Positions 1 through 38,185 of a DNA stretch of 64,000 nt are shown here, piece by piece (position 1 is the stretch's first letter; each line of letters opens with the position of its first letter). The DNA is taken from sequence record OP595146.1; one strand, written 5' to 3'. A program made the translations under genes and the position numbers. The notes below the pieces were generated by a model. That model saw only the letters and a list, made by a program, of their open reading frames with translations, made no database searches and was not told where the DNA came from. This DNA is from Escherichia phage vB_EcoM_DE17.

Positions 1-987
1 TTCATAACGAGAGGAACGCATCTTCATATCGTTGTAATCAGTTGGAACAGATACAACATCTCGTGGATGGACACGAACCTTCAGGATGGTATCACCTGAG
101 AAGCAACGAACATAATCCCAAGCACCAACATGAAGACCTTGAGAGCAAGTTACGTTACGGTTGTTATCAACCATCCAACGTGGCATCTCTACAATGTTAC
201 CCAAATCATTAGGTACTTTGTAGGTGTGAGAGTCAACCAGCTTGCCTTCACGAGTAGAGACTTTCTTCCAACCAATGATGTAGCCTTCTTCATCAATTTC
301 AACATCAAGGTGAGATACAAATCCCCAAAGTTGTTCTACAGAATCTTTAGATGGGTTTTCCATCAGTTTTTCGAAGAACATTACAAGTCGTTCAAAACCT
401 TTATCACCAGTTTTCATCATGTGAAGAATACGGTCAACCAGAGTAGAACGCATCTCAACAGCACCGTAGAAGAGCTTGTCACCTTTGATTGTGATAGCGC
501 CCTGAGTGAAGTTTTCGATAGACTTACGAATGTTCATCAGTTCAAATGCTTTCTTGAACTCACCTTTCACAACATGAACTACAATCTCTTGATAGTTCGG
601 ATGAGTAGATTCAACAATTTCAGATTCTGAACCGTAAGTCATAATTACAGAGTCACCAGTAATCATGTACTCAATCTTGTCATCTTTCTGCATAGCTTCA
701 TGCAGTTTATTCACTGGAGCTTTCTGTACAGCGTCTTTAACGACCTTTTCAACTGGTTTGCCAGCTTTCTTCTTAAAGGTCTTAGCAACTTGCTTCAAAG
801 TCTTCGTAGCTGGTGTAGAAGCTGCCTTTTTCTTTCCTTTTAAGGTTGCTTCATGACGCTCTACAGCACGACCAACTGAACGGGTTGAAGTATTGAACTT
901 CTGTGCAATAGCTGTTTTAGTCAGCTTACCTTCTTTAACCAGTTCGTAAATTTCTGCGTCAATCTGTGCTTTAGTTTTAGTAGTCAT
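1..987 (-). CDS. rIIB: rIIB-like protein, 3' end cut by window edge
   Basis: Hand-translated minus ORF from ATG at 987 running off the window; C-terminal motifs LVDRIL and VHPRDVVSVPTDYNDMKMR resemble T4 rIIB as recalled; sits directly downstream of rIIA. Confidence 0.8.
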   Translation of the reverse strand, partial: MTTKTKAQIDAEIYELVKEGKLTKTAIAQKFNTSTRSVGRAVERHEATLKGKKKAASTPATKTLKQVAKTFKKKAGKPVEKVVKDAVQKAPVNKLHEAMQKDDKIEYMITGDSVIMTYGSESEIVESTHPNYQEIVVHVVKGEFKKAFELMNIRKSIENFTQGAITIKGDKLFYGAVEMRSTLVDRILHMMKTGDKGFERLVMFFEKLMENPSKDSVEQLWGFVSHLDVEIDEEGYIIGWKKVSTREGKLVDSHTYKVPNDLGNIVEMPRWMVDNNRNVTCSQGLHVGAWDYVRCFSGDTILKVRVHPRDVVSVPTDYNDMKMRSSRYE

Positions 988-1031
988 CTTATTACTCTCT
1001 CTTGTTAATTAATAAATCATTTTGTAAGGCT

Positions 1032-1062
1032 ATTCTAAGGGGCTTTGAAGCCCCTTGTCAAA
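1032..1062 (-). promoter_or_regulatory. sigma70-like promoter upstream of rIIB with palindrome in spacer
   Basis: Minus strand reads TTGACA-aggggcttcaaagcccctt-TAGAAT; spacer holds perfect hairpin GGGGCTTCAAAGCCCC (1039..1054). Confidence 0.5.
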
Positions 1063-1066
1063 CACT

Positions 1067-3433
1067 TTAATCGTAAATTGTAGTCCCTTCTGGAACACAC
1101 TTCACATCAAAGCCTAAGAACTTACTCACTTCGATGGGTGACACTTTATTCCAATCTAAATGAGAAAGCAAGAAGTTTTCTTGTTTTCTTTTTGAAAGGT
1201 AGTTTGTCACCTTGATGACCATACGGTCACCAGCTTTCTTAATTTTCTTGTACAGCTTTGTATCATTATCAAGACAGCTTTTTAAATCTTGCAACACACT
1301 AATAGTGTAAGTGTATGCAAAAGGTGCAGCAACGTATTGGATTTTACCAAACATTGCCTCTACAGCATCTTCATTACCTTCTAAGAAGATAGTTTTGTTT
1401 GTGTCTCGTGAATAGCAATAACCGCGAGAAATCTTCCTGTTATTGAACGTAAAGTTTCTGGCAATAATCCAACTGCTTGTAAGGTCTAGGACACCATTCA
1501 TATAGATACGTGTCATATACCTGTTATGATTAATCCAGTGAACATCAGTTAAGCTGTCGTTCAAGAGCTTCTCATCTACTTCAATCCAGTCTTCTGGTAT
1601 CTTTTTCCAATTTGCTTTTCGGAAAACATAGACTGTCTTTTCAATGACATTGGCAACTGACTTAGCTACATCTTCTGGAGATGAGCAAAAACATTCACCA
1701 TCAACTGTGTCGCCTACTGCCTTAATATAAAGCTGAGGCTCTTCAATCGTATCTAAGTCTTCTGACACCTCTTTGTATGAAGCTACGCCTTCTGCTGGAA
1801 CAGCTTTCCAAAGTTTTACAACACCTCTTACAGCTTCTTTACGCTGATAATGGTGTTCCTTATCAGACATCTTCACAATCTTTAACAAGCTTTTATCAAG
1901 TTTGTGAAGATTGATTAAATCATCTAGCTCTTCCTCATTAGAGAATACAAAGACGATACCATTGTATCTGTGAAACAGACTTGACTCACTGGCATAGTCT
2001 CGACATGCACCACGCAGAATCTGATTGCGTCCTACAGTCTTCTCAGTACCATTTTTATTGCGACGGTCATTTATAACAAACAAAAACTGTTCAATTTGAC
2101 TTTTACGCATTGCGCCAAAGATATTGAACATACTTGCCTCTTGAGTGTAGGAAAGCGCTGTTGCACGAATCTTACTTTCTAAAGAGTTGAACTTAACATA
2201 AGCAACTGGATTATAAAGATAATCTACTTTAGGGATATTGTTCCCGTTCCTATCAACCTTAATATTGCCTTTACCGTCACGTTCGTAAATGACTGAGCCG
2301 TCTTCTGCGTAGATAATTCCACGACGAATGTTTAGTAATTCTTCTTCCAGAGAATCAAGCTTAACACCACCCCACTCTAGCTTTGGACACACAGCATTAA
2401 ACATCTCTCGTGAGTTCAAGCGTAACTCAGCATAAGCCTGTGCAGCATCCATGAGTGTAGGTTGGCTATTAACTTTCTTGATAACATCCTTTGTAATTGC
2501 TTCAGTTATCTTTTTGGTAGCCTCAATGATAACATTTTTTGTCGTATCATTCATCTGCAATGCTTCACGAGAAGCTGCAATAGCAACTGAGCCAATAGGC
2601 ATGTAGATGTTTACAAGGTCTACGCTCCTGCGGAAAAATTCTGGCAATACTTTGAAGAAATCATCACCAAGTAATGCTTCCATATTAACAGGGTAGGCAA
2701 TGTTACCCATCACCACATTAAACTCTGTCCTGTTACCACTAGAACGCCAGCTTTGTTTGTGAATCATGGCATCATAAACACCTTCTTCACGGGCAATGAC
2801 ATTCATATCTGCTAATACATCGTCATACTCGATATTACTTTCTGGTTTTACAGCAAAGTATGAGTATACGTTACCAGCTTCTTCAAAGAACTTTGAGATG
2901 CGGTGGTCAGCAACTGCTACACGTACAGCTAAACCATTAGGCTCTTTTGTTGGGTTGGTGGTCAGTTTAGTTACTTGAGGAATGCCATTCTCAAGGTAAA
3001 CAGAGTACTTATTAACCACACCATCAACATAGCTAGACACTGTGAATGACTGAGCAATTGCAAATGGGGATTTTGAGCCGATACCCATTGCACCAATGTA
3101 GTCATTAGAGTCATTCTTCGTAGAAGCCCCGTAGTTTAGGTACAAACTCATAACTTTATCATGAGTCAATCCAGTTCCAAAATCACGGACTTCAAAGTAA
3201 GGCTCAAAACGAGTAGGTAAATGCACATGGAACGGGATATTCTCTTTTCCAGCTTCTTTCTGAGCATCTACTGCGTTACATGACAGTTCACGAATCACTG
3301 CCCTTTCTTTAAAGGTATATACACCAGAACTCAAAAGGCTGAACATTTCAGGTGTCATTGTAATCTGTGCTTGAGACGTCTCTAAAGAAGTTGAACTCTT
3401 AATCACTTCTGCGTGGTCATTTACCATGCGCAT
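1067..3433 (-). CDS. rIIA: rIIA-like protein with GHKL-type ATPase domain
   Basis: 788 aa; Bergerat-fold motifs NAVDA, DFGTGL, GAMGIGSKS; followed by rIIB as in T4. Confidence 0.8.
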   Translation of the reverse strand: MRMVNDHAEVIKSSTSLETSQAQITMTPEMFSLLSSGVYTFKERAVIRELSCNAVDAQKEAGKENIPFHVHLPTRFEPYFEVRDFGTGLTHDKVMSLYLNYGASTKNDSNDYIGAMGIGSKSPFAIAQSFTVSSYVDGVVNKYSVYLENGIPQVTKLTTNPTKEPNGLAVRVAVADHRISKFFEEAGNVYSYFAVKPESNIEYDDVLADMNVIAREEGVYDAMIHKQSWRSSGNRTEFNVVMGNIAYPVNMEALLGDDFFKVLPEFFRRSVDLVNIYMPIGSVAIAASREALQMNDTTKNVIIEATKKITEAITKDVIKKVNSQPTLMDAAQAYAELRLNSREMFNAVCPKLEWGGVKLDSLEEELLNIRRGIIYAEDGSVIYERDGKGNIKVDRNGNNIPKVDYLYNPVAYVKFNSLESKIRATALSYTQEASMFNIFGAMRKSQIEQFLFVINDRRNKNGTEKTVGRNQILRGACRDYASESSLFHRYNGIVFVFSNEEELDDLINLHKLDKSLLKIVKMSDKEHHYQRKEAVRGVVKLWKAVPAEGVASYKEVSEDLDTIEEPQLYIKAVGDTVDGECFCSSPEDVAKSVANVIEKTVYVFRKANWKKIPEDWIEVDEKLLNDSLTDVHWINHNRYMTRIYMNGVLDLTSSWIIARNFTFNNRKISRGYCYSRDTNKTIFLEGNEDAVEAMFGKIQYVAAPFAYTYTISVLQDLKSCLDNDTKLYKKIKKAGDRMVIKVTNYLSKRKQENFLLSHLDWNKVSPIEVSKFLGFDVKCVPEGTTIYD

Positions 3434-3461
3434 AATACTTTCCTCTTAGTTTACTGTTAAA

Positions 3462-3638
3462 TTACTTATTAAACATTTTACCAGAACCACCACACATAGG
3501 ACAGCAACCTGCTCTTGTATAGCCTTCTCCATTACAGTAGTCACATTTTTTGTGTTCTGCAAAGTACTTACAAAGAAGATAAACAAGGACTGCTACACCA
3601 CCAAGTGACAGTAAAATTTCTACCCAATATGCTTGCAT
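3462..3638 (-). CDS. small membrane-anchored protein with two CxxCxGxG zinc-finger repeats
   Basis: 58-aa ORF not in supplied track, hand-translated: N-terminal hydrophobic helix then CDYCNGEG and CPMCGGSG (DnaJ-type motif). Confidence 0.4.
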   Translation of the reverse strand: MQAYWVEILLSLGGVAVLVYLLCKYFAEHKKCDYCNGEGYTRAGCCPMCGGSGKMFNK

Positions 3639-3967
3639 GACTCACCTCTCATATTTTTGTAAAGGATAAAGCTTCTGTCATGGACGACACTTGTAGACAC
3701 TGCAAAGTTACTTTCAAGCATCTGTTTGTTTGGATTGTAGAAGCTCTCTTTAAACTCGTCAAGTGCAAATTGGTGATTGTCTGGAAGACCTTTTACACAC
3801 ACCTTTATTGTGATTGCTGCTGCAATCTTCCCAGTCAGTTCTTCTTTAGCTGCTACTAAGATTTTGTTGAGGAACTTATGACCATTTTCAGGCTTCTTGA
3901 TGTTCTCCCAACGCTCTTCTAAGACAATATTGATGTTCATCTCTTTGATTTTCATAATTTTCACCAA
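3620..3967 (-). CDS. hypothetical protein
   Basis: 115-aa ORF in tight co-directional gene array; no recognisable motif. Confidence 0.4.
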   Translation of the reverse strand: MVKIMKIKEMNINIVLEERWENIKKPENGHKFLNKILVAAKEELTGKIAAAITIKVCVKGLPDNHQFALDEFKESFYNPNKQMLESNFAVSTSVVHDRSFILYKNMRGESCKHIG

Positions 3968-4305
3968 GTCCAGTTAACGAGTATGCCATCGAAACCTTTT
4001 ACTAAAGGTACACCCTCATGTTCATAAAATTCAGGATTAACTTCGAATCCACGATTTTCAATATACTCTATCATGTATTTCATTACAAAGCTAATCTCTT
4101 CGTAGTCATCTGGGTCTCTGCCAAAGAACTGTTCTATGACAAACATACCCTCTTTTGTAGCAAATTGGCAGTGGTGATTGTAGATACCTTCACAAAACTT
4201 TTCAAACTTTTCTTTACCGAGAACTTCAAGGATGTCTGTATAGGCAACTTGTAAGTATTTCGGTTGTACAGGTTTCTTATTAAACCATATGGAAAGGTTG
4301 TCCAT
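3961..4305 (-). CDS. hypothetical protein
   Basis: 114-aa ORF, 4-nt overlap with downstream gene; no motif recognised. Confidence 0.45.
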   Translation of the reverse strand: MDNLSIWFNKKPVQPKYLQVAYTDILEVLGKEKFEKFCEGIYNHHCQFATKEGMFVIEQFFGRDPDDYEEISFVMKYMIEYIENRGFEVNPEFYEHEGVPLVKGFDGILVNWTW

Positions 4306-4325
4306 AGCATTCTCCAGAAATTAAA

Positions 4326-4343
4326 AAGGCTCCCGTAGGAGCC
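4326..4343 (-). terminator. intrinsic terminator after NAMPT-like gene
   Basis: Minus strand hairpin GGCTCC-TACG-GGAGCC followed by TTTTTAATTT. Confidence 0.6.
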
Positions 4344-4358
4344 TCTTATCATATACTT

Positions 4359-6140
4359 TTAAAGCTGCTTGTCAATATTATTTCGAATATCACCAAGAGT
4401 TGTGTAGCCGAACTGCTCAGAGTCGCTAAAGACTAAACGTAAAGCACAAGCTGGATGTTCAAGTGCATCTGCAAAGCTCTGGAATCCATAGCCATCTACA
4501 GCTTTCAGATTCTCACCATCCCACATAGGGGCTACACCACCAAAAGCAGACTTCTTAACACCACTATCTGTTTTAGGGTCTTTTGCAAGCATAATCTCTT
4601 TACCACCAATTCTTGCAAGAGTTGCTTTGACAGCAAATGCAAAGGTGTCACGAGTCATGTACTGGTAAGTGTAAGAACCTACACCAAACACTACGTTAGA
4701 GCTTGCAAAACCCATTTCATACAAACGCTTAAGGATTTCGTTTGCGCGTTCCAACGTGATAGAGTCACCATAAATAAGTCCGATATGCTCATCCAGTACT
4801 TTAAAACCTTTAGAGTTGATAGTTCCTCCAAAGATGTTATACAGTGTCTTGATAGCTCCATCAATCTCCGCTACAGGACGTGTTACAACGTTTGCAGAAC
4901 CAACCATATAAGCATTTTTCAACAGCACTGTATCAGCAACTTCAAAGTCTTCTCTGTCAACAACCATTTCGTAACCTTCTGACAGTAGCCATCCAGCAAT
5001 ACCATAATTGATGTTTTCAAGCTTCATGTTCAGAACAGCATTCAGCATTGTGTCGCTGGCTTCCAGCTTACTTAGGTGTTCGTAATAAGCCTTTTTAGCA
5101 CACTCTAAATGGATTGCTTTGTATCCTGTGACAATATGTACAGGGTCTCCAGAATCAGGACGAATTACCAGTTTGCCATCACGTTCCATAATCTCTTTAC
5201 GGAGTTCTGGCAATATGACTGATACAGTTCTCCAGAAGTTATAAGTATCTGAAACAACACTTGCAATACCAGTTGGGTAAGTTTTTGTTAAGAAACGACG
5301 GAAGGTTTGTAACTCACCTTTAAAGCGTCTTTCTTCTTCAATCAACTCGTTACCACCTTCCCAAGCAATGTTTGCACACATTACAGAATGTTCAGTGGCT
5401 GGTACAGAGCTACCAATATCAGAGATTGGGTAGGACTGTCCATAGATGCGTTTAGCTGTATACACAGCAGGGAAGCTATCAGTCCCTTTAAAGCTGGTTA
5501 AGTGACCTACAGCGTTAAATGCGTCATCAGTAAAGCCAGACATACCACGCATAGCAAAGTCATGGCACTGGTAAGGTAAATGTAAGTCGTTGTCACAAGT
5601 AAGGTCAGCCCACTTCTTACAGATACGTTTGTAGTGCAATGCAATAGTTGCAATGGTACAAGCCTTCCAAATCTCAGCAGAGAAAGCATCTTCCAGATAC
5701 CCCGCTACCCAATGGAAACCTGAAACAGTGTTCTGGAAAACAATCATTGGTACACGCATAGGGACAACTGTACCTTCTTCTACAGCGTAGACTTCAACTG
5801 GTAAATAACCTAAGTCGTGGAGTGCTTCCCAATGTTCTCGACCAATAGCATCTTTACCCAGAACACCATTCATGACTTCTAAGATTTCGTCAATTGCTTC
5901 TTTTTTGTCACGTTCAAAGAACGTAGCATTCCAATGGTCTATCAGGTAATCTTTAACAAAACGTTGAATACCAAAAGCAACTACACCATCAATTGCTAAG
6001 GGGCTGTTAAACCATTTGTCACTACGTGGTGTCAGGTTGAACATCAAGTACTCTGTTGCGCTAGGATACTGGTAGATGTGACCAGATTTGTAAGCATCTG
6101 CGTTTAAACCTGCTGGTACTGCATAAAGTGATTTAGTCAT
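4359..6140 (-). CDS. nadV: nicotinamide phosphoribosyltransferase family protein (NAMPT/NadV-like; possibly Namat-type)
   Basis: 593 aa; sequence pattern typical of the NAMPT family throughout; adjacent to a Prs-like gene. Confidence 0.8.
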   Translation of the reverse strand: MTKSLYAVPAGLNADAYKSGHIYQYPSATEYLMFNLTPRSDKWFNSPLAIDGVVAFGIQRFVKDYLIDHWNATFFERDKKEAIDEILEVMNGVLGKDAIGREHWEALHDLGYLPVEVYAVEEGTVVPMRVPMIVFQNTVSGFHWVAGYLEDAFSAEIWKACTIATIALHYKRICKKWADLTCDNDLHLPYQCHDFAMRGMSGFTDDAFNAVGHLTSFKGTDSFPAVYTAKRIYGQSYPISDIGSSVPATEHSVMCANIAWEGGNELIEEERRFKGELQTFRRFLTKTYPTGIASVVSDTYNFWRTVSVILPELRKEIMERDGKLVIRPDSGDPVHIVTGYKAIHLECAKKAYYEHLSKLEASDTMLNAVLNMKLENINYGIAGWLLSEGYEMVVDREDFEVADTVLLKNAYMVGSANVVTRPVAEIDGAIKTLYNIFGGTINSKGFKVLDEHIGLIYGDSITLERANEILKRLYEMGFASSNVVFGVGSYTYQYMTRDTFAFAVKATLARIGGKEIMLAKDPKTDSGVKKSAFGGVAPMWDGENLKAVDGYGFQSFADALEHPACALRLVFSDSEQFGYTTLGDIRNNIDKQL

Positions 6141-6160: not shown

Positions 6161-6176
6161 GGGGCTTTTAAGCCCC
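6161..6176 (-). terminator. hairpin after Prs-like gene
   Basis: GGGGCTTAAAAGCCCC then ATTTTGAG on minus strand. Confidence 0.45.
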
Positions 6177-7865: not shown

Positions 7866-7916
7866 ATTATCTCCAAAATAAAAAGGGAACCTTTACAGTT
7901 CCCTTATAGTATCTGC

Positions 7917-8237
7917 TTACTGAGCTACTTTCAAGATTCTTGTGAATGGAATTTCACTTTCTTCCATTAACTCTTTAGTTTCTTTGGTAACTTTCACAAA
8001 GTTATCTAGGCAGATAATCTTCTTATCTTTCTTACTATAGGTTAATTTAACCTTTTCAATATCTTTCTCAGAGCTTTTCTCTTCATTGAAGAGTTTTACA
8101 GCCTCTTTGAATGGGAGATATGAGCCATCATTATCACTAATGAATCCTGTACCACAATAGTAGGAGTTATGTTCTCTAGCCATAAACTGGCACAGTAAGA
8201 AAATCTGTAATTTACGAGTGTTATAAACTTTGCTCAT
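7917..8237 (-). CDS. hypothetical protein
   Basis: 106-aa ORF. Confidence 0.45.
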   Translation of the reverse strand: MSKVYNTRKLQIFLLCQFMAREHNSYYCGTGFISDNDGSYLPFKEAVKLFNEEKSSEKDIEKVKLTYSKKDKKIICLDNFVKVTKETKELMEESEIPFTRILKVAQ

Positions 8238-8239
8238 GA

Positions 8240-8524
8240 TTATTTAGCCTTCTTATTACGTTTACGGTTACGAGCTTTCTTAGCTGCTCGTTTAATAGCT
8301 GCTGCACCAGACGGACGGTGGGCTTGTTTCTTACCACCTTTGCCACGGCCTACATAGATGTAAGGTTGCTGTTCAATTTGGCTTGTAAGAACCTGTGCAA
8401 CCGCTGAAGCATCTACACCGACCTGCTTTCCAGTCATAGAAACAATGGCTGCTGCTTTTGCCAGTGCCTTCAAGAATCCAGCTTTCATATTACCTAAAAT
8501 TCCCATTTTTAGTCTCTCTCTCAT
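8240..8524 (-). CDS. hypothetical protein with Lys/Arg-rich C-terminal tail
   Basis: 94 aa; C-terminus AAIKRAAKKARNRKRNKKAK suggests nucleic-acid binding. Confidence 0.45.
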   Translation of the reverse strand: MRERLKMGILGNMKAGFLKALAKAAAIVSMTGKQVGVDASAVAQVLTSQIEQQPYIYVGRGKGGKKQAHRPSGAAAIKRAAKKARNRKRNKKAK

Positions 8525-8604
8525 TAAAGTTTAATACAGAACTTATGAAGTTCTTCTTCAGTGATACCAATTGGAGTTATACCTTAGTCCATTTGCCAGA
8601 ATAA

Positions 8605-9090
8605 TCACTCTGCTCTCCACTGACAATCACCTTGCCACCCATACTCTTTTCTCCAGAGGTTTTGATTATCAGAACCACGATACGGTTTAACTGTTGGTTT
8701 AGATGAATCATACTTACCATCAATCACCACGTCAACATATTTCATCACATCTAGGTGAATTTTTTCGTGTAACTGAAAACCTGTCCAGAGCCAGATAGAC
8801 TTCTCTGGATAAACAGTTTTAATACGTTTGCATATGTTGGTAACCTCTTGAATATTTCTATCATCCAGAGGTTCTCCACCAAGTATTGACAACCCACTGA
8901 TGGCCTCATCACCCATTAAATTAATAATGCCGTAAAGGTTTGCATAAGTAAACTCTTTACCAGCATTAAACTTCCAAGACTCCCTGTTAAAGCAGCCTTC
9001 ACAGTGATGTTTACAGCCAGCTACGAAGAGGCTTACCCGAACCCCTTCACCATTAGCTGTGTCAAATGGTCGAATCTCCATGTAATTCAT
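8605..9090 (-). CDS. nrdG: anaerobic ribonucleotide reductase activating protein (radical SAM)
   Basis: CKHHCEGC radical-SAM cysteine cluster near N-terminus; size and position next to nrdD. Confidence 0.8.
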   Translation of the reverse strand: MNYMEIRPFDTANGEGVRVSLFVAGCKHHCEGCFNRESWKFNAGKEFTYANLYGIINLMGDEAISGLSILGGEPLDDRNIQEVTNICKRIKTVYPEKSIWLWTGFQLHEKIHLDVMKYVDVVIDGKYDSSKPTVKPYRGSDNQNLWRKEYGWQGDCQWRAE

Positions 9091-9099
9091 CTAGTTACC

Positions 9100-9399
9100 T
9101 CACCAATACATATAAGTGTTCTTAGCGGCTTTCTTTGGAGACTTGCTATCAATATCAAAATCTTCATCTAAGAAGGATGTCTTAGAAAGCTGCCTTATTT
9201 GTGTTCTTGTAAGACGTTTAGTGGCCTTCTTAATCTCTCTACAAGGCTGACTTGTAAAGTCATAAGAGCCACCTTTTCTGGACATCATATCAGAATGGAA
9301 GTAGACATCTAAAGCATTTTCTCTGTTACGTACCTCATTTCTCCACTCATAAAGTCCATGAACGTTCTTTAAACCTTTTCTTCGAATTGTTTTACTCAT
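9100..9399 (-). CDS. hypothetical protein
   Basis: 99-aa basic ORF. Confidence 0.45.
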   Translation of the reverse strand: MSKTIRRKGLKNVHGLYEWRNEVRNRENALDVYFHSDMMSRKGGSYDFTSQPCREIKKATKRLTRTQIRQLSKTSFLDEDFDIDSKSPKKAAKNTYMYW

Positions 9400-20553: not shown

Positions 20554-20582
20554 ATTCTAATTTGTTGATACTCTATTGTCAA
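20554..20582 (-). promoter_or_regulatory. sigma70-like promoter upstream of SSB-like gene
   Basis: Minus strand TTGACA-N17-TAGAAT, about 30 nt upstream of the start at 20517. Confidence 0.5.
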
Positions 20583-20589
20583 ACATTAA

Positions 20590-20739: not shown

Positions 20740-21029
20740 GATATTCTCCGATATACTTGATATTCAAACACATTTTCTTTTATTACAAACAGCCAACCAA
20801 TATTATGTTTAGGTATAGTAATAATGACTGTGATTATGCTGTGATGGAACTTTTCTTCTACCTCAACGCCTCCATCACATTTCATGGAGAGCATTCTATA
20901 GAACCTATCAACCTTTGTCAAACACTCTTCCTGAAATTCATTTAAACTTTTTTCTTCAAAGAAGGGTATAAACCCCTCTCTTTTATAACTATCACTCAGT
21001 TTCGAATGGGCAGTCATCTGCATCCTCAC
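20736..21029 (-). CDS. hypothetical protein (doubtful)
   Basis: 97-aa ORF overlapping the primase-helicase 3' end and containing a promoter-like motif; may be shorter or non-coding. Confidence 0.3.
   Translation of the reverse strand: MRMQMTAHSKLSDSYKREGFIPFFEEKSLNEFQEECLTKVDRFYRMLSMKCDGGVEVEEKFHHSIITVIITIPKHNIGWLFVIKENVFEYQVYRRIS
20893..20922 (-). promoter_or_regulatory. sigma70-like promoter (TTGACA-N18-TAGAAT)
   Basis: Same motif pair as 20554..20582; lies upstream of the small basic ORF and inside doubtful ORF 20736..21029. Confidence 0.45.
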
Positions 21030-38139: not shown

Positions 38140-38159
38140 TATAAATTTTCCTCTTAAAA

Positions 38160-38175
38160 GGGGCTACAAAGCCCC
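38160..38175 (-). terminator. hairpin between the two tail-fibre genes
   Basis: GGGGC-tttgta-GCCCC followed on minus strand by TTTTAAGAGG then the RBS of the downstream fibre gene. Confidence 0.45.
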
Positions 38176-38185
38176 TGTAAAGAAA

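Follow-up and report, generated by a model that had tools for sequence, protein, structure and literature searches.

The rIIA–rIIB junction

The DNA analysed here (the window) is a stretch of 64,000 nucleotides from Escherichia phage vB_EcoM_DE17 (OP595146.1), a Felixounavirus similar to Felix O1. Two adjacent genes are located at its beginning, both on the minus strand. The upstream one, rIIA (1067..3433 in the list of open reading frames; 788 aa), is preceded by the Shine–Dalgarno (SD) sequence AAGAGGAAAG upstream of its ATG at 3433. The downstream one, rIIB, starts from the ATG at 987, and its first 329 codons (1..987) are present; the frame runs past the window start, and the final ~40 codons are outside the window, the full-length proteins of Felix O1 and wV8 having 369 aa. 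The first-pass annotation had mentioned neither the minus-strand location nor the truncation of rIIB by the window edge.

Gene families were assigned with PHROGs. Residues 1–770 of the rIIA product aligned with phrog_612 ('RIIA lysis inhibitor', E = 2e-189), and rIIB matched phrog_609 ('RIIB lysis inhibitor', E = 9e-88); the same names are carried by the annotation of relatives with 96–97% DNA identity. In Pfam, rIIA had no match, and rIIB had only sub-threshold matches to helix-turn-helix (HTH) domains: six HTH families, the best being HTH_Tnp_ISL3 (E = 4e-5), aligned with residues 10–45. A sequence search of rIIB against PDB gave no meaningful match. Thus, the genes form an adjacent, co-oriented pair with family matches for both, and the first-pass annotation was right to place them in the T4 order. 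In T4, the rII genes are known for their role in overcoming prophage exclusion. The gene order, the orientation and the HTH-like N-terminus of rIIB are the same at the T4 junction, but the gap between the genes differs: in a Tequatrovirus it comprises 11 nt (TAATAAGGAAAATTATG), leaving no space for a promoter or a hairpin, whereas here it is 79 nt long and carries both.

On the minus strand the gap reads TAA-agtgt-TTGACA-A-GGGGCTTCAAAGCCCC-T-TAGAAT, followed by 44 nt and the ATG. The rIIA stop codon (1069-1067) is 5 nt ahead of the -35 hexamer TTGACA (1056..1061), which lies within the extended motif TGTTTGACAA (1064-1055). The 18-nt spacer (1055-1038), that is, A, GGGGCTTCAAAGCCCC and T, is followed by the -10 hexamer TAGAAT (1032..1037). 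Transcription would likely start at 1023..1027, 5–9 nt past the -10 hexamer, given the standard sigma-70 geometry. The SD-like sequence AAGAGAGAG (995..1003) is situated 7 nt ahead of the rIIB start. Hence the boxes do flank a perfect 16-nt palindrome, as had been proposed, albeit on the minus strand and with a spacer of 18 nt. The possibility of an antisense promoter or a plus-strand terminator was rejected, as the plus strand has neither the boxes nor a T-run.

The promoter (TTGACA-18-TAGAAT) scores 11/12. Promoters with at least 11 matches are enriched in the window (7 observed, 1.8 expected from first-order Markov shuffles of the window), and six of the seven lie between genes, in the orientation of the gene that follows. 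The 10-mer TGTTTGACAA occurs also ahead of TAGAAT promoters at 20585 and 20924, three sites in total. Similar intergenic promoters form a family in this phage, to which the putative rIIB promoter belongs. Of the 20 nt upstream of the -35 hexamer 15 are A or T, though here the coding sequence of rIIA comes to its end.

The palindrome can form the hairpin AAGGGGCT-TCAA-AGCCCCTT (1037..1056, minus strand) with an 8-bp stem and a 4-nt loop, the 16-nt core palindrome being at 1054-1039. It occupies the whole promoter spacer and one base of each hexamer, thus overlapping the core promoter as a repressor operator would. The free energy of the RNA hairpin is -12.5 kcal/mol, the same stability as that of the T-tailed terminator hairpins in the window. 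GC-rich and located directly after a stop codon, it resembles an intrinsic terminator, but differs from one in that there is no U-rich tract immediately 3' of the stem: the tail is TAGAATAG / AGAATAGC, with 1–3 T in 8 nt. Because of this the terminator scan fails to report it; nor is it marked in the wV8 record or among the TransTerm predictions of the Felix O1 paper. An Rfam scan of positions 1–4500 (E ≤ 1) yielded three chance-level matches, none of them at the junction.

Our literature search retrieved no experimental 5' or 3' transcript ends at the rIIA–rIIB junction for any Felixounavirus. The Felix O1 genome paper gives neither a promoter nor a terminator between the two genes, and the accessible part of the wV8 paper contains no mention of promoters or terminators.

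Conservation of the junction in relatives

Comparison of the junction in related phages had been suggested as a check, and the palindrome turned out to be conserved. None of the 29 related IMG/VR loci lacks the combination of promoter and hairpin (the cassette); in the Mooglevirus-like loci among them, whose flanks have diverged, the spacer has 17 nt. Changes in the hexamers are limited to TTGACT or TAAAAT, the latter in three relatives. The stem is intact in 27 loci, and in the other two a G>A substitution weakens it (-8.0 kcal/mol). In contrast, the loop varies (TCAA, TTGA, GAAA or GCAA), as do the 5'UTR and other intergenic bases, while the (A)AGAGAGA SD sequence is kept in all loci. This pattern points to purifying selection on the -35 hexamer, the stem and the -10 hexamer, with the loop and the 5'UTR free to vary. 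We observed no covariation in the stem within Felixounavirus and Mooglevirus; hence, in these genera, conservation of an RNA structure looks the same as conservation of a site recognized in DNA.

In the more distant relatives, Erwinia phage phiEa21-4 and Pectobacterium phage Wc4, an equally stable hairpin of another sequence occupies the same place, directly after the rIIA stop codon: GGGCTG-GAAA-CAGCCC in Kolesnikvirus (-12.6 kcal/mol) and TGGTGGC-N7-GCCACCA in Wc4 (-13.0 kcal/mol). Inspection by eye of the sequence around these hairpins revealed no sigma-70 boxes with an acceptable spacer. GGGGCT/AGCCCC and GGGCTG/CAGCCC may differ by three compensatory pairs or by a shift of one pair, and the shortness of the Kolesnikvirus and Wc4 hairpins precludes an unambiguous alignment; hence we claim conservation of structure and stability only. 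A U-tract is absent from the junction hairpin in every relative examined, the Kolesnikvirus and Wc4 tails also being T-poor. The hairpins of Kolesnikvirus and Wc4 indicate that this element is important independently of the promoter boxes.

Related cassettes in the window and in T4-like phages

The window contains further elements of a similar kind, all on the minus strand. In two sister composite cassettes the promoter adjoins a hairpin with a T-run. In the first (4324..4375) TTGACA-16-TATGAT is followed after 3 nt by AGGCTCC-TACG-GGAGCCT and a T-run, and in the second (7883..7934) the hairpin AAGGGAAC-TGTAAAG-GTTCCCTT with a T-run comes directly after TTGAAA-17-TACTAT. Since in both a promoter is set directly on a terminator, the predicted start falls within the 5' hairpin arm. 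Directly downstream of the 4375-4324 cassette there is a variable 114-aa ORF, present or absent among close relatives; this indel is bounded by start codons, not by another cassette. The junction stem itself is reused twice, in ordinary terminator-like hairpins with T-tails just ahead of the SD sequence of the next gene: GGGGCT-TAAA-AGCCCC (6161..6176), followed by ATTTTG, and AGGGGCT-TTGT-AGCCCCT (38159..38176), followed by TTTAAGAGG. Altogether there are about four composite cassettes in 64 kb, and the nested type, with the hairpin between the boxes, is represented by a single copy.

Composite cassettes of promoters and stem-loops have been described in the T4-like phages RB49 and phi1 as promoter-early stem-loops, or PeSLs (PMC2839356; Comeau et al. 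[quoted passage not shown] The junction cassette corresponds to this subclass: an 8-bp stem with GGGGCT/AGCCCC lies in the spacer of a near-consensus sigma-70-like promoter, the early promoters of PeSLs being of this type with spacers of 16–18 nt, and the whole is intergenic, framed by the stop codon of the preceding gene and by the SD sequence and start of the following one. Applied to the first 50 kb of phi1, the same script yielded 17 cassettes, three of them of the 'between' type and likewise with T-poor tails. Direct comparison with a phi1 example, TTGACA-ggggatcacgtatcccc-TATACT, demonstrates the common features: a near-consensus sigma-70 promoter, a stem-loop of a G-run and a C-run filling the 17–18-nt spacer, a stop codon upstream, an SD sequence and ATG downstream, and a T-poor tail. 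The AAAGTnnTTGACA context upstream of the promoter is also shared with the phi1 PeSL promoters; an AT-rich tract ahead of the -35 box is typical of PeSLs, though at the rIIA–rIIB junction this position coincides with the end of the rIIA coding sequence. Moreover, unrelated viral contigs have the identical nested layout in intergenic positions (L036, L038, L043, where it occurs twice, L050 and L060).

There are also differences. The phage is an Ounavirinae myovirus and not a T4-like one, and it has about four composite cassettes in 64 kb compared to 17 in 50 kb of phi1. While PeSLs occur in many copies by ORFans in hyperplastic regions, where close relatives differ by indels, the rIIA–rIIB copy is situated between conserved genes, and no indel or shuffling has affected it in any relative examined. 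By analogy, we consider the cassette a probable further member of the PeSL-type design, bearing in mind that the stem-loop tested in the published reporter assays may be of a type other than the nested, T-poor one. As this design has already been described in T4-like phages, the element is in itself fairly ordinary.

Possible modes of rIIB regulation

We consider it most plausible, with a probability of about 0.6, that the junction carries a PeSL-type cassette in which transcription is initiated anew for rIIB at a sigma-70 promoter and the hairpin acts only in the RNA read through from rIIA. Host RNA polymerase would initiate approximately 7 nt past TAGAAT, producing a separate rIIB transcript; as this start is downstream of the hairpin, the promoter-initiated RNA would be devoid of it. 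The hairpin would form only in RNA initiated further upstream and extended across rIIA (the cassette at 4375 is the closest candidate promoter), and there it could serve as a pause site or partial terminator (attenuator) and/or as a 3'-end structure of the rIIA mRNA. Termination is probably incomplete, and may be negligible, as the U-tract is absent. Then rIIB would be expressed both by read-through and from its own promoter, the two inputs being partly insulated. Because a promoter cannot terminate its own transcripts, nesting the hairpin within it would be the most compact way to combine a 'stop' and a 'start' in a 30-bp unit. A read-through hairpin with a re-initiating promoter is the published logic of PeSLs (PMC2839356). 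The suggestion of the first-pass annotation that the structure couples rIIA read-through to rIIB initiation comes close to this best-supported reading, with the amendment that the hairpin would be restricted to rIIA-derived transcripts, whereas the promoter would re-initiate.

Alternatively, the hairpin alone could be functional, as a mark or stabilizer of the rIIA mRNA 3' end or as a site of processing, with the boxes unused and rIIB expressed by read-through only. Three observations agree with this: across the subfamily the hairpin is kept when the boxes are not (Kolesnikvirus, Wc4), no promoter is given at the junction in the Felix O1 paper, and a GC-rich spacer of 18 nt is suboptimal for sigma-70. 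On the other hand, none of the 29 loci has lost either hexamer, and the changes tolerated there (TTGACT, TAAAAT, a spacer of 17 or 18 nt) preserve the promoter quality; besides, TGTTTGACAA with TAGAAT recurs at two further intergenic sites, and the 11/12 matches are enriched and nearly all intergenic and co-oriented. We thus regard unused boxes as unlikely.

Another possibility is that the palindrome is an operator, as the first-pass annotation had also suggested. The most attractive binder would be rIIB itself, exerting negative autoregulation, since a perfect palindrome in the core promoter directly ahead of a gene for an HTH protein is the classic autoregulatory layout. The sub-threshold matches of rIIB residues 10–45 to six HTH families fit this suggestion, as does the classification of rIIB as a specific transcription factor by Iyer et al. 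(PMC7824862), and invariant stem bases around a variable loop could equally be two half-sites. However, in autoregulated promoters with palindromic operators the site would be accompanied by its cognate protein, and here the palindrome and the HTH do not occur together consistently from phage to phage. The T4-type rIIB has an HTH-like N-terminus, yet follows an 11-nt gap with no palindrome, and the same N-terminus without the palindrome is seen in the Slopekvirus-like loci L099 and L100. Conversely, the Kolesnikvirus and Wc4 hairpins lack promoter boxes and differ in both the stem sequence and the arm spacing (4-nt and 7-nt loops), even though Kolesnikvirus has almost the same HTH helix. The stem copies at 6161 and 38159 are T-tailed and terminator-like, and the stem sequence is different in each copy of the nested phi1 PeSLs. 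The operator reading has therefore gained no support and seems improbable; slightly less probable still is its specific form, in which rIIB binds GGGGCT-N4-AGCCCC in its own promoter, and perhaps at 6161 and 38159 too, and regulates itself. If this were true, DNA binding would be a concrete function for the long-enigmatic rIIB in phages like Felix O1.

The cassette could also be a short patch of conserved homology for gene shuffling rather than an element of rIIB regulation, PeSLs having been proposed as shuffling mediators (PMC2839356, PMC4122927). One sister cassette (4375-4324) does lie directly upstream of the ORF that only some of the close relatives have. In addition, the junction loop has changed into its reverse complement no fewer than seven times among 23 relatives, loop orientation being reported for only two hairpin cases, those with known flank orientation; these flips show that the palindrome is active in DNA. 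But the rIIA–rIIB synteny is intact in all 36 loci examined, from four genera; the nested type is single in 64 kb, hence there is no partner copy for recombination; and the indel by the sister cassette stops at start codons, with no second cassette. A shuffling role of the junction cassette is thus highly improbable. Finally, that a functionless palindrome fell between promoter-like hexamers by chance can be practically dismissed: while it occurs once in the window, with 0.05 promoters of at least 10/12 having a perfect spacer stem of at least 6 bp expected per 64 kb from Markov shuffles (rare yet possible), conservation in 29/29 loci amid varying intergenic bases already contradicts chance and argues against it more strongly than the Markov statistic, and the structure is conserved across genera and the design repeated in phi1 and unrelated contigs.

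Phages of the Felixounavirus group are widely used for typing and therapy. For them, the practical value of the PeSL-type cassette is in annotation, as the rIIA–rIIB gap is devoid of marked regulatory signals in the Felix O1 and wV8 records and in the Felix O1 genome paper, the latter describing the transcription control of the group as unknown. A conserved promoter family (TGTTTGACAA...TAGAAT), together with cassettes of overlapping 'stop' and 'start' signals, provides testable boundaries of transcription units. What is known about the rII function is unchanged by the cassette. At the same time, the cassette adds a second lineage of myoviruses to the T4-like phages in which the PeSL design has been described, which suggests that compact genomes of lytic phages resort to this design generally and that it is no peculiarity of the T4 family.

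The rIIA and rIIB genes and the junction between them

Judged from its sequence, the phage is a Felix O1-like myovirus. A nucleotide search with bases 1-3600 gave 97.5% identity to Escherichia phage KEP3 and matches to 275 phage records, Felixounavirus being in the majority. Both rII genes lie on the minus strand. rIIA (3433..1067) encodes 788 aa and matches phrog_612 ('RIIA lysis inhibitor', E=2e-189), and rIIB starts at ATG 987 and continues past the window start (329 aa present; phrog_609, E=9e-88). Since rIIB comprises 369 aa in Felix O1 and wV8, about 40 codons lie outside the window. Pfam contained no model for either protein.

The reference records of Felix O1 and wV8 annotate rIIA as 763 aa from record base 1, while the window ORF of 788 aa has a good Shine-Dalgarno sequence ahead of ATG 3433 (N-terminus, 3359-3433); the likely cause is that these genomes were opened within rIIA, leaving its annotation 25 codons short. 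The phrog_609 profile (RIIB label, length 1055) aligns with rIIB at positions 755-1039 and also with the N-terminal third of rIIA at positions 31-299, which suggests either a fused rIIA-N/rIIB protein in some phages or a cluster merging both. Residues 10-45 of rIIB (883-960) are HTH-like and are followed by a lysine-rich linker; this N-terminal motif is conserved in rIIB of Mooglevirus, Kolesnikvirus, Pectobacterium phage Wc4, Slopekvirus-like and T4-type phages.

The intergenic gap of 79 nt, read on the minus strand, comprises agtgt after the rIIA stop TAA (1069-1067), a -35 box TTGACA (1061-1056), the spacer A-GGGGCTTCAAAGCCCC-T (1055-1038), a -10 box TAGAAT (1037-1032), and 44 nt, including the Shine-Dalgarno sequence AAGAGAGAG, before the rIIB ATG, the full element being TTAAAGTGTTTGACA-aggggcttcaaagcccct-TAGAAT. 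The first-pass annotation had noted a palindrome in the rIIB promoter spacer, and on checking it proved exact, with all elements on the minus strand. When flanking bases are counted in, the hairpin has a stem of 8 bp and a 4-nt loop (RNA dG -12.5 kcal/mol), and the promoter matches 11 of the 12 consensus positions.

At this level (at least 11/12), the window contains seven promoters against 1.8 expected (sd 1.5; first-order Markov shuffles); six of them lie between genes and are directed at the next one. In three minus-strand promoters (1064, 20585 and 20924), TAGAAT is preceded by the extended motif TGTTTGACAA, hence the junction promoter belongs to a phage promoter family. The other two (20554-20585 and 20893-20924; TGTTTGACAA-N16-TAGAAT) are strong and intergenic, and lie on either side of a small ORF that follows a 663-aa gene; a separate T-tailed hairpin lies ahead of the upstream one.

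Conservation of the junction in related phages

The cassette was present in all 29 related loci retrieved from IMG/VR via the rIIB protein. Its sequence is TTGACA-A-GGGGCT-N4-AGCCCC-T-TA(G/A)AAT in Felixounavirus-like loci. In the seven Mooglevirus-like loci (rIIB 77-84% identical) the surrounding intergenic sequence has strongly diverged, and the cassette is TTGAC(A/T)-GGGGCT-G(A/C)AA-AGCCCC-T-TA(G/A)AAT with a 17-nt spacer. Among the 29, changes in the hexamers are limited to TTGACT (one locus) and TAAAAT (three loci), and the stem is unbroken in 27, a G>A change in the other two lowering its stability to -8.0 kcal/mol. The loop varies freely (TCAA, TTGA, GAAA or GCAA).

Among close relatives the loop (1045-1048) is TCAA or its exact reverse complement TTGA, with no intermediate, and switches at least seven times on a neighbour-joining tree (23 sequences, flanking 3.2 kb), a count that recombination among phages could inflate. 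The switching looks like recurrent hairpin-loop inversion, possibly through template switching within the palindrome. A second flip distinguishes the window hairpin 4344-4327 (AGGCTCC-TACG-GGAGCCT, loop 4334-4337) from AGGCTCC-CGTA-GGAGCCT in a related contig (L037, 5083-5098), with the same flank orientation; loop inversion may be general for terminator hairpins of these phages.

In Erwinia phage phiEa21-4 and two IMG/VR relatives, GGGCTG-GAAA-CAGCCC (-12.6 kcal/mol) directly follows the rIIA stop, and the junction hairpin of Wc4 is TGGTGGC-CTAACAA-GCCACCA (-13.0 kcal/mol); sigma-70 boxes with a usable spacer were not found around either type. A predicted hairpin of about -13 kcal/mol at the junction is conserved across the subfamily, and the putative promoter hexamers are restricted to the Felixounavirus and Mooglevirus branch. 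No junction version examined has a U-tract after the hairpin. Wc4 and Kolesnikvirus share (A)TC(C)TTAAAC 3' of the hairpin (hairpins at 203-223 in locus L031, 2459-2474 in L032 and ~1455-1470 in L096/L098), where Felixounavirus has CTTAGAAT; this may be a decayed -10 box or a precursor of one. By contrast with the 79-nt gap of the window, that of a Tequatrovirus is just 11 nt (TAATAAGGAAAATTATG), with neither hairpin nor promoter, and in Slopekvirus-like contigs rIIA and rIIB abut.

Similarity to promoter-early stem-loops

Promoter-early stem-loops (PeSLs) of the T4-like phages RB49 and phi1 combine a near-consensus sigma-70 promoter with a stem-loop, usually GGGG...CCCC; cloned cassettes were strong promoters in lacZ reporters, and one stem-loop cut read-through as much as rrnB T1 (Arbiol et al., PMC2839356). 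Comeau et al. widened the class to further T4-likes (PMC4122927). [quoted passage not shown] The junction element has the same build as these three, but differs in belonging to another phage lineage and in having two core genes rather than ORFans as neighbours. An exact-pattern scan of IMG/VR also yielded intergenic nested layouts in unrelated viral contigs of 33-48% GC (L036, L038, L043 twice, L050 and L060). In two further window cassettes, 4375-4324 and 7934-7883, the stem-loop is a T-tailed terminator placed just after the -10 box, and its 5' arm contains the predicted start.

Directly downstream of 4375-4324 lies a 114-aa ORF (3961-4305, minus; phrog_20372, function unknown), present in the relatives L058 and L062 and absent in L037, L041, L044, L054 and L056; its deletion fuses its ATG to that of the next ORF. 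As close relatives (L041, L058) also lack segments 8360-8605 and 9120-9385 or carry other sequence in their place, the early region behaves like a zone of variable genes. Upstream of the rII block, 4359-6140 (minus) is a phage NAD-salvage gene, encoding a 593-aa homologue of nicotinamide/nicotinate phosphoribosyltransferase (Pfam NAPRTase, E=3e-34, and NAMPT_N).

Alternative readings and proposed function

We favour a composite of promoter and hairpin (probability about 0.6), with more confidence in the promoter than in the hairpin's role. That the hairpin functions alone, the boxes being unused, is unlikely, as both hexamers are selectively conserved and the promoter family exists in the phage. 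Less probable still is an operator, a reading raised in the first-pass annotation. It is suggestive that the palindrome lies in the promoter of an HTH gene, rIIB residues 10-45 match six HTH Pfam families, all below threshold, and Iyer et al. (PMC7824862) consider rIIB a transcription factor. However, T4-type and Slopekvirus-like rIIB have the same HTH-like N-terminus and no upstream palindrome; in Kolesnikvirus the helix is nearly identical, yet the hairpin differs in arm spacing and no promoter was found; the window has the same stem in T-tailed hairpins at positions 6161 and 38159; and in phi1 the stem differs at each nested copy. A recombination cassette is rated very low because none of 36 loci is rearranged at the junction. 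Chance co-occurrence of palindrome and hexamers is hardly credible; 0.05 promoters (at least 10/12) containing a perfect stem of at least 6 bp in the spacer are expected per 64 kb (first-order Markov shuffles).

Nothing is marked at this junction in the Felix O1 genome paper or in the records of Felix O1 and wV8, and a full-text literature search for PeSLs yielded no paper on Felix O1-like phages. On the comparative evidence, we regard the junction element as a real, conserved and hitherto unannotated regulatory cassette fitting the published class. By promoter geometry the predicted start site is downstream of the hairpin, and both promoter and hairpin are conserved. Under the composite reading, polymerase coming from upstream would transcribe the hairpin and there be slowed or partly released, or the hairpin would serve as a protective 3' end after processing. 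Polymerase bound at the nested promoter would initiate about 7 nt past TAGAAT, producing an rIIB message without the hairpin, so that the promoter would be unable to terminate itself. As the U-tract is missing, termination would be leaky rather than complete, which fits a gene pair with jointly acting products.
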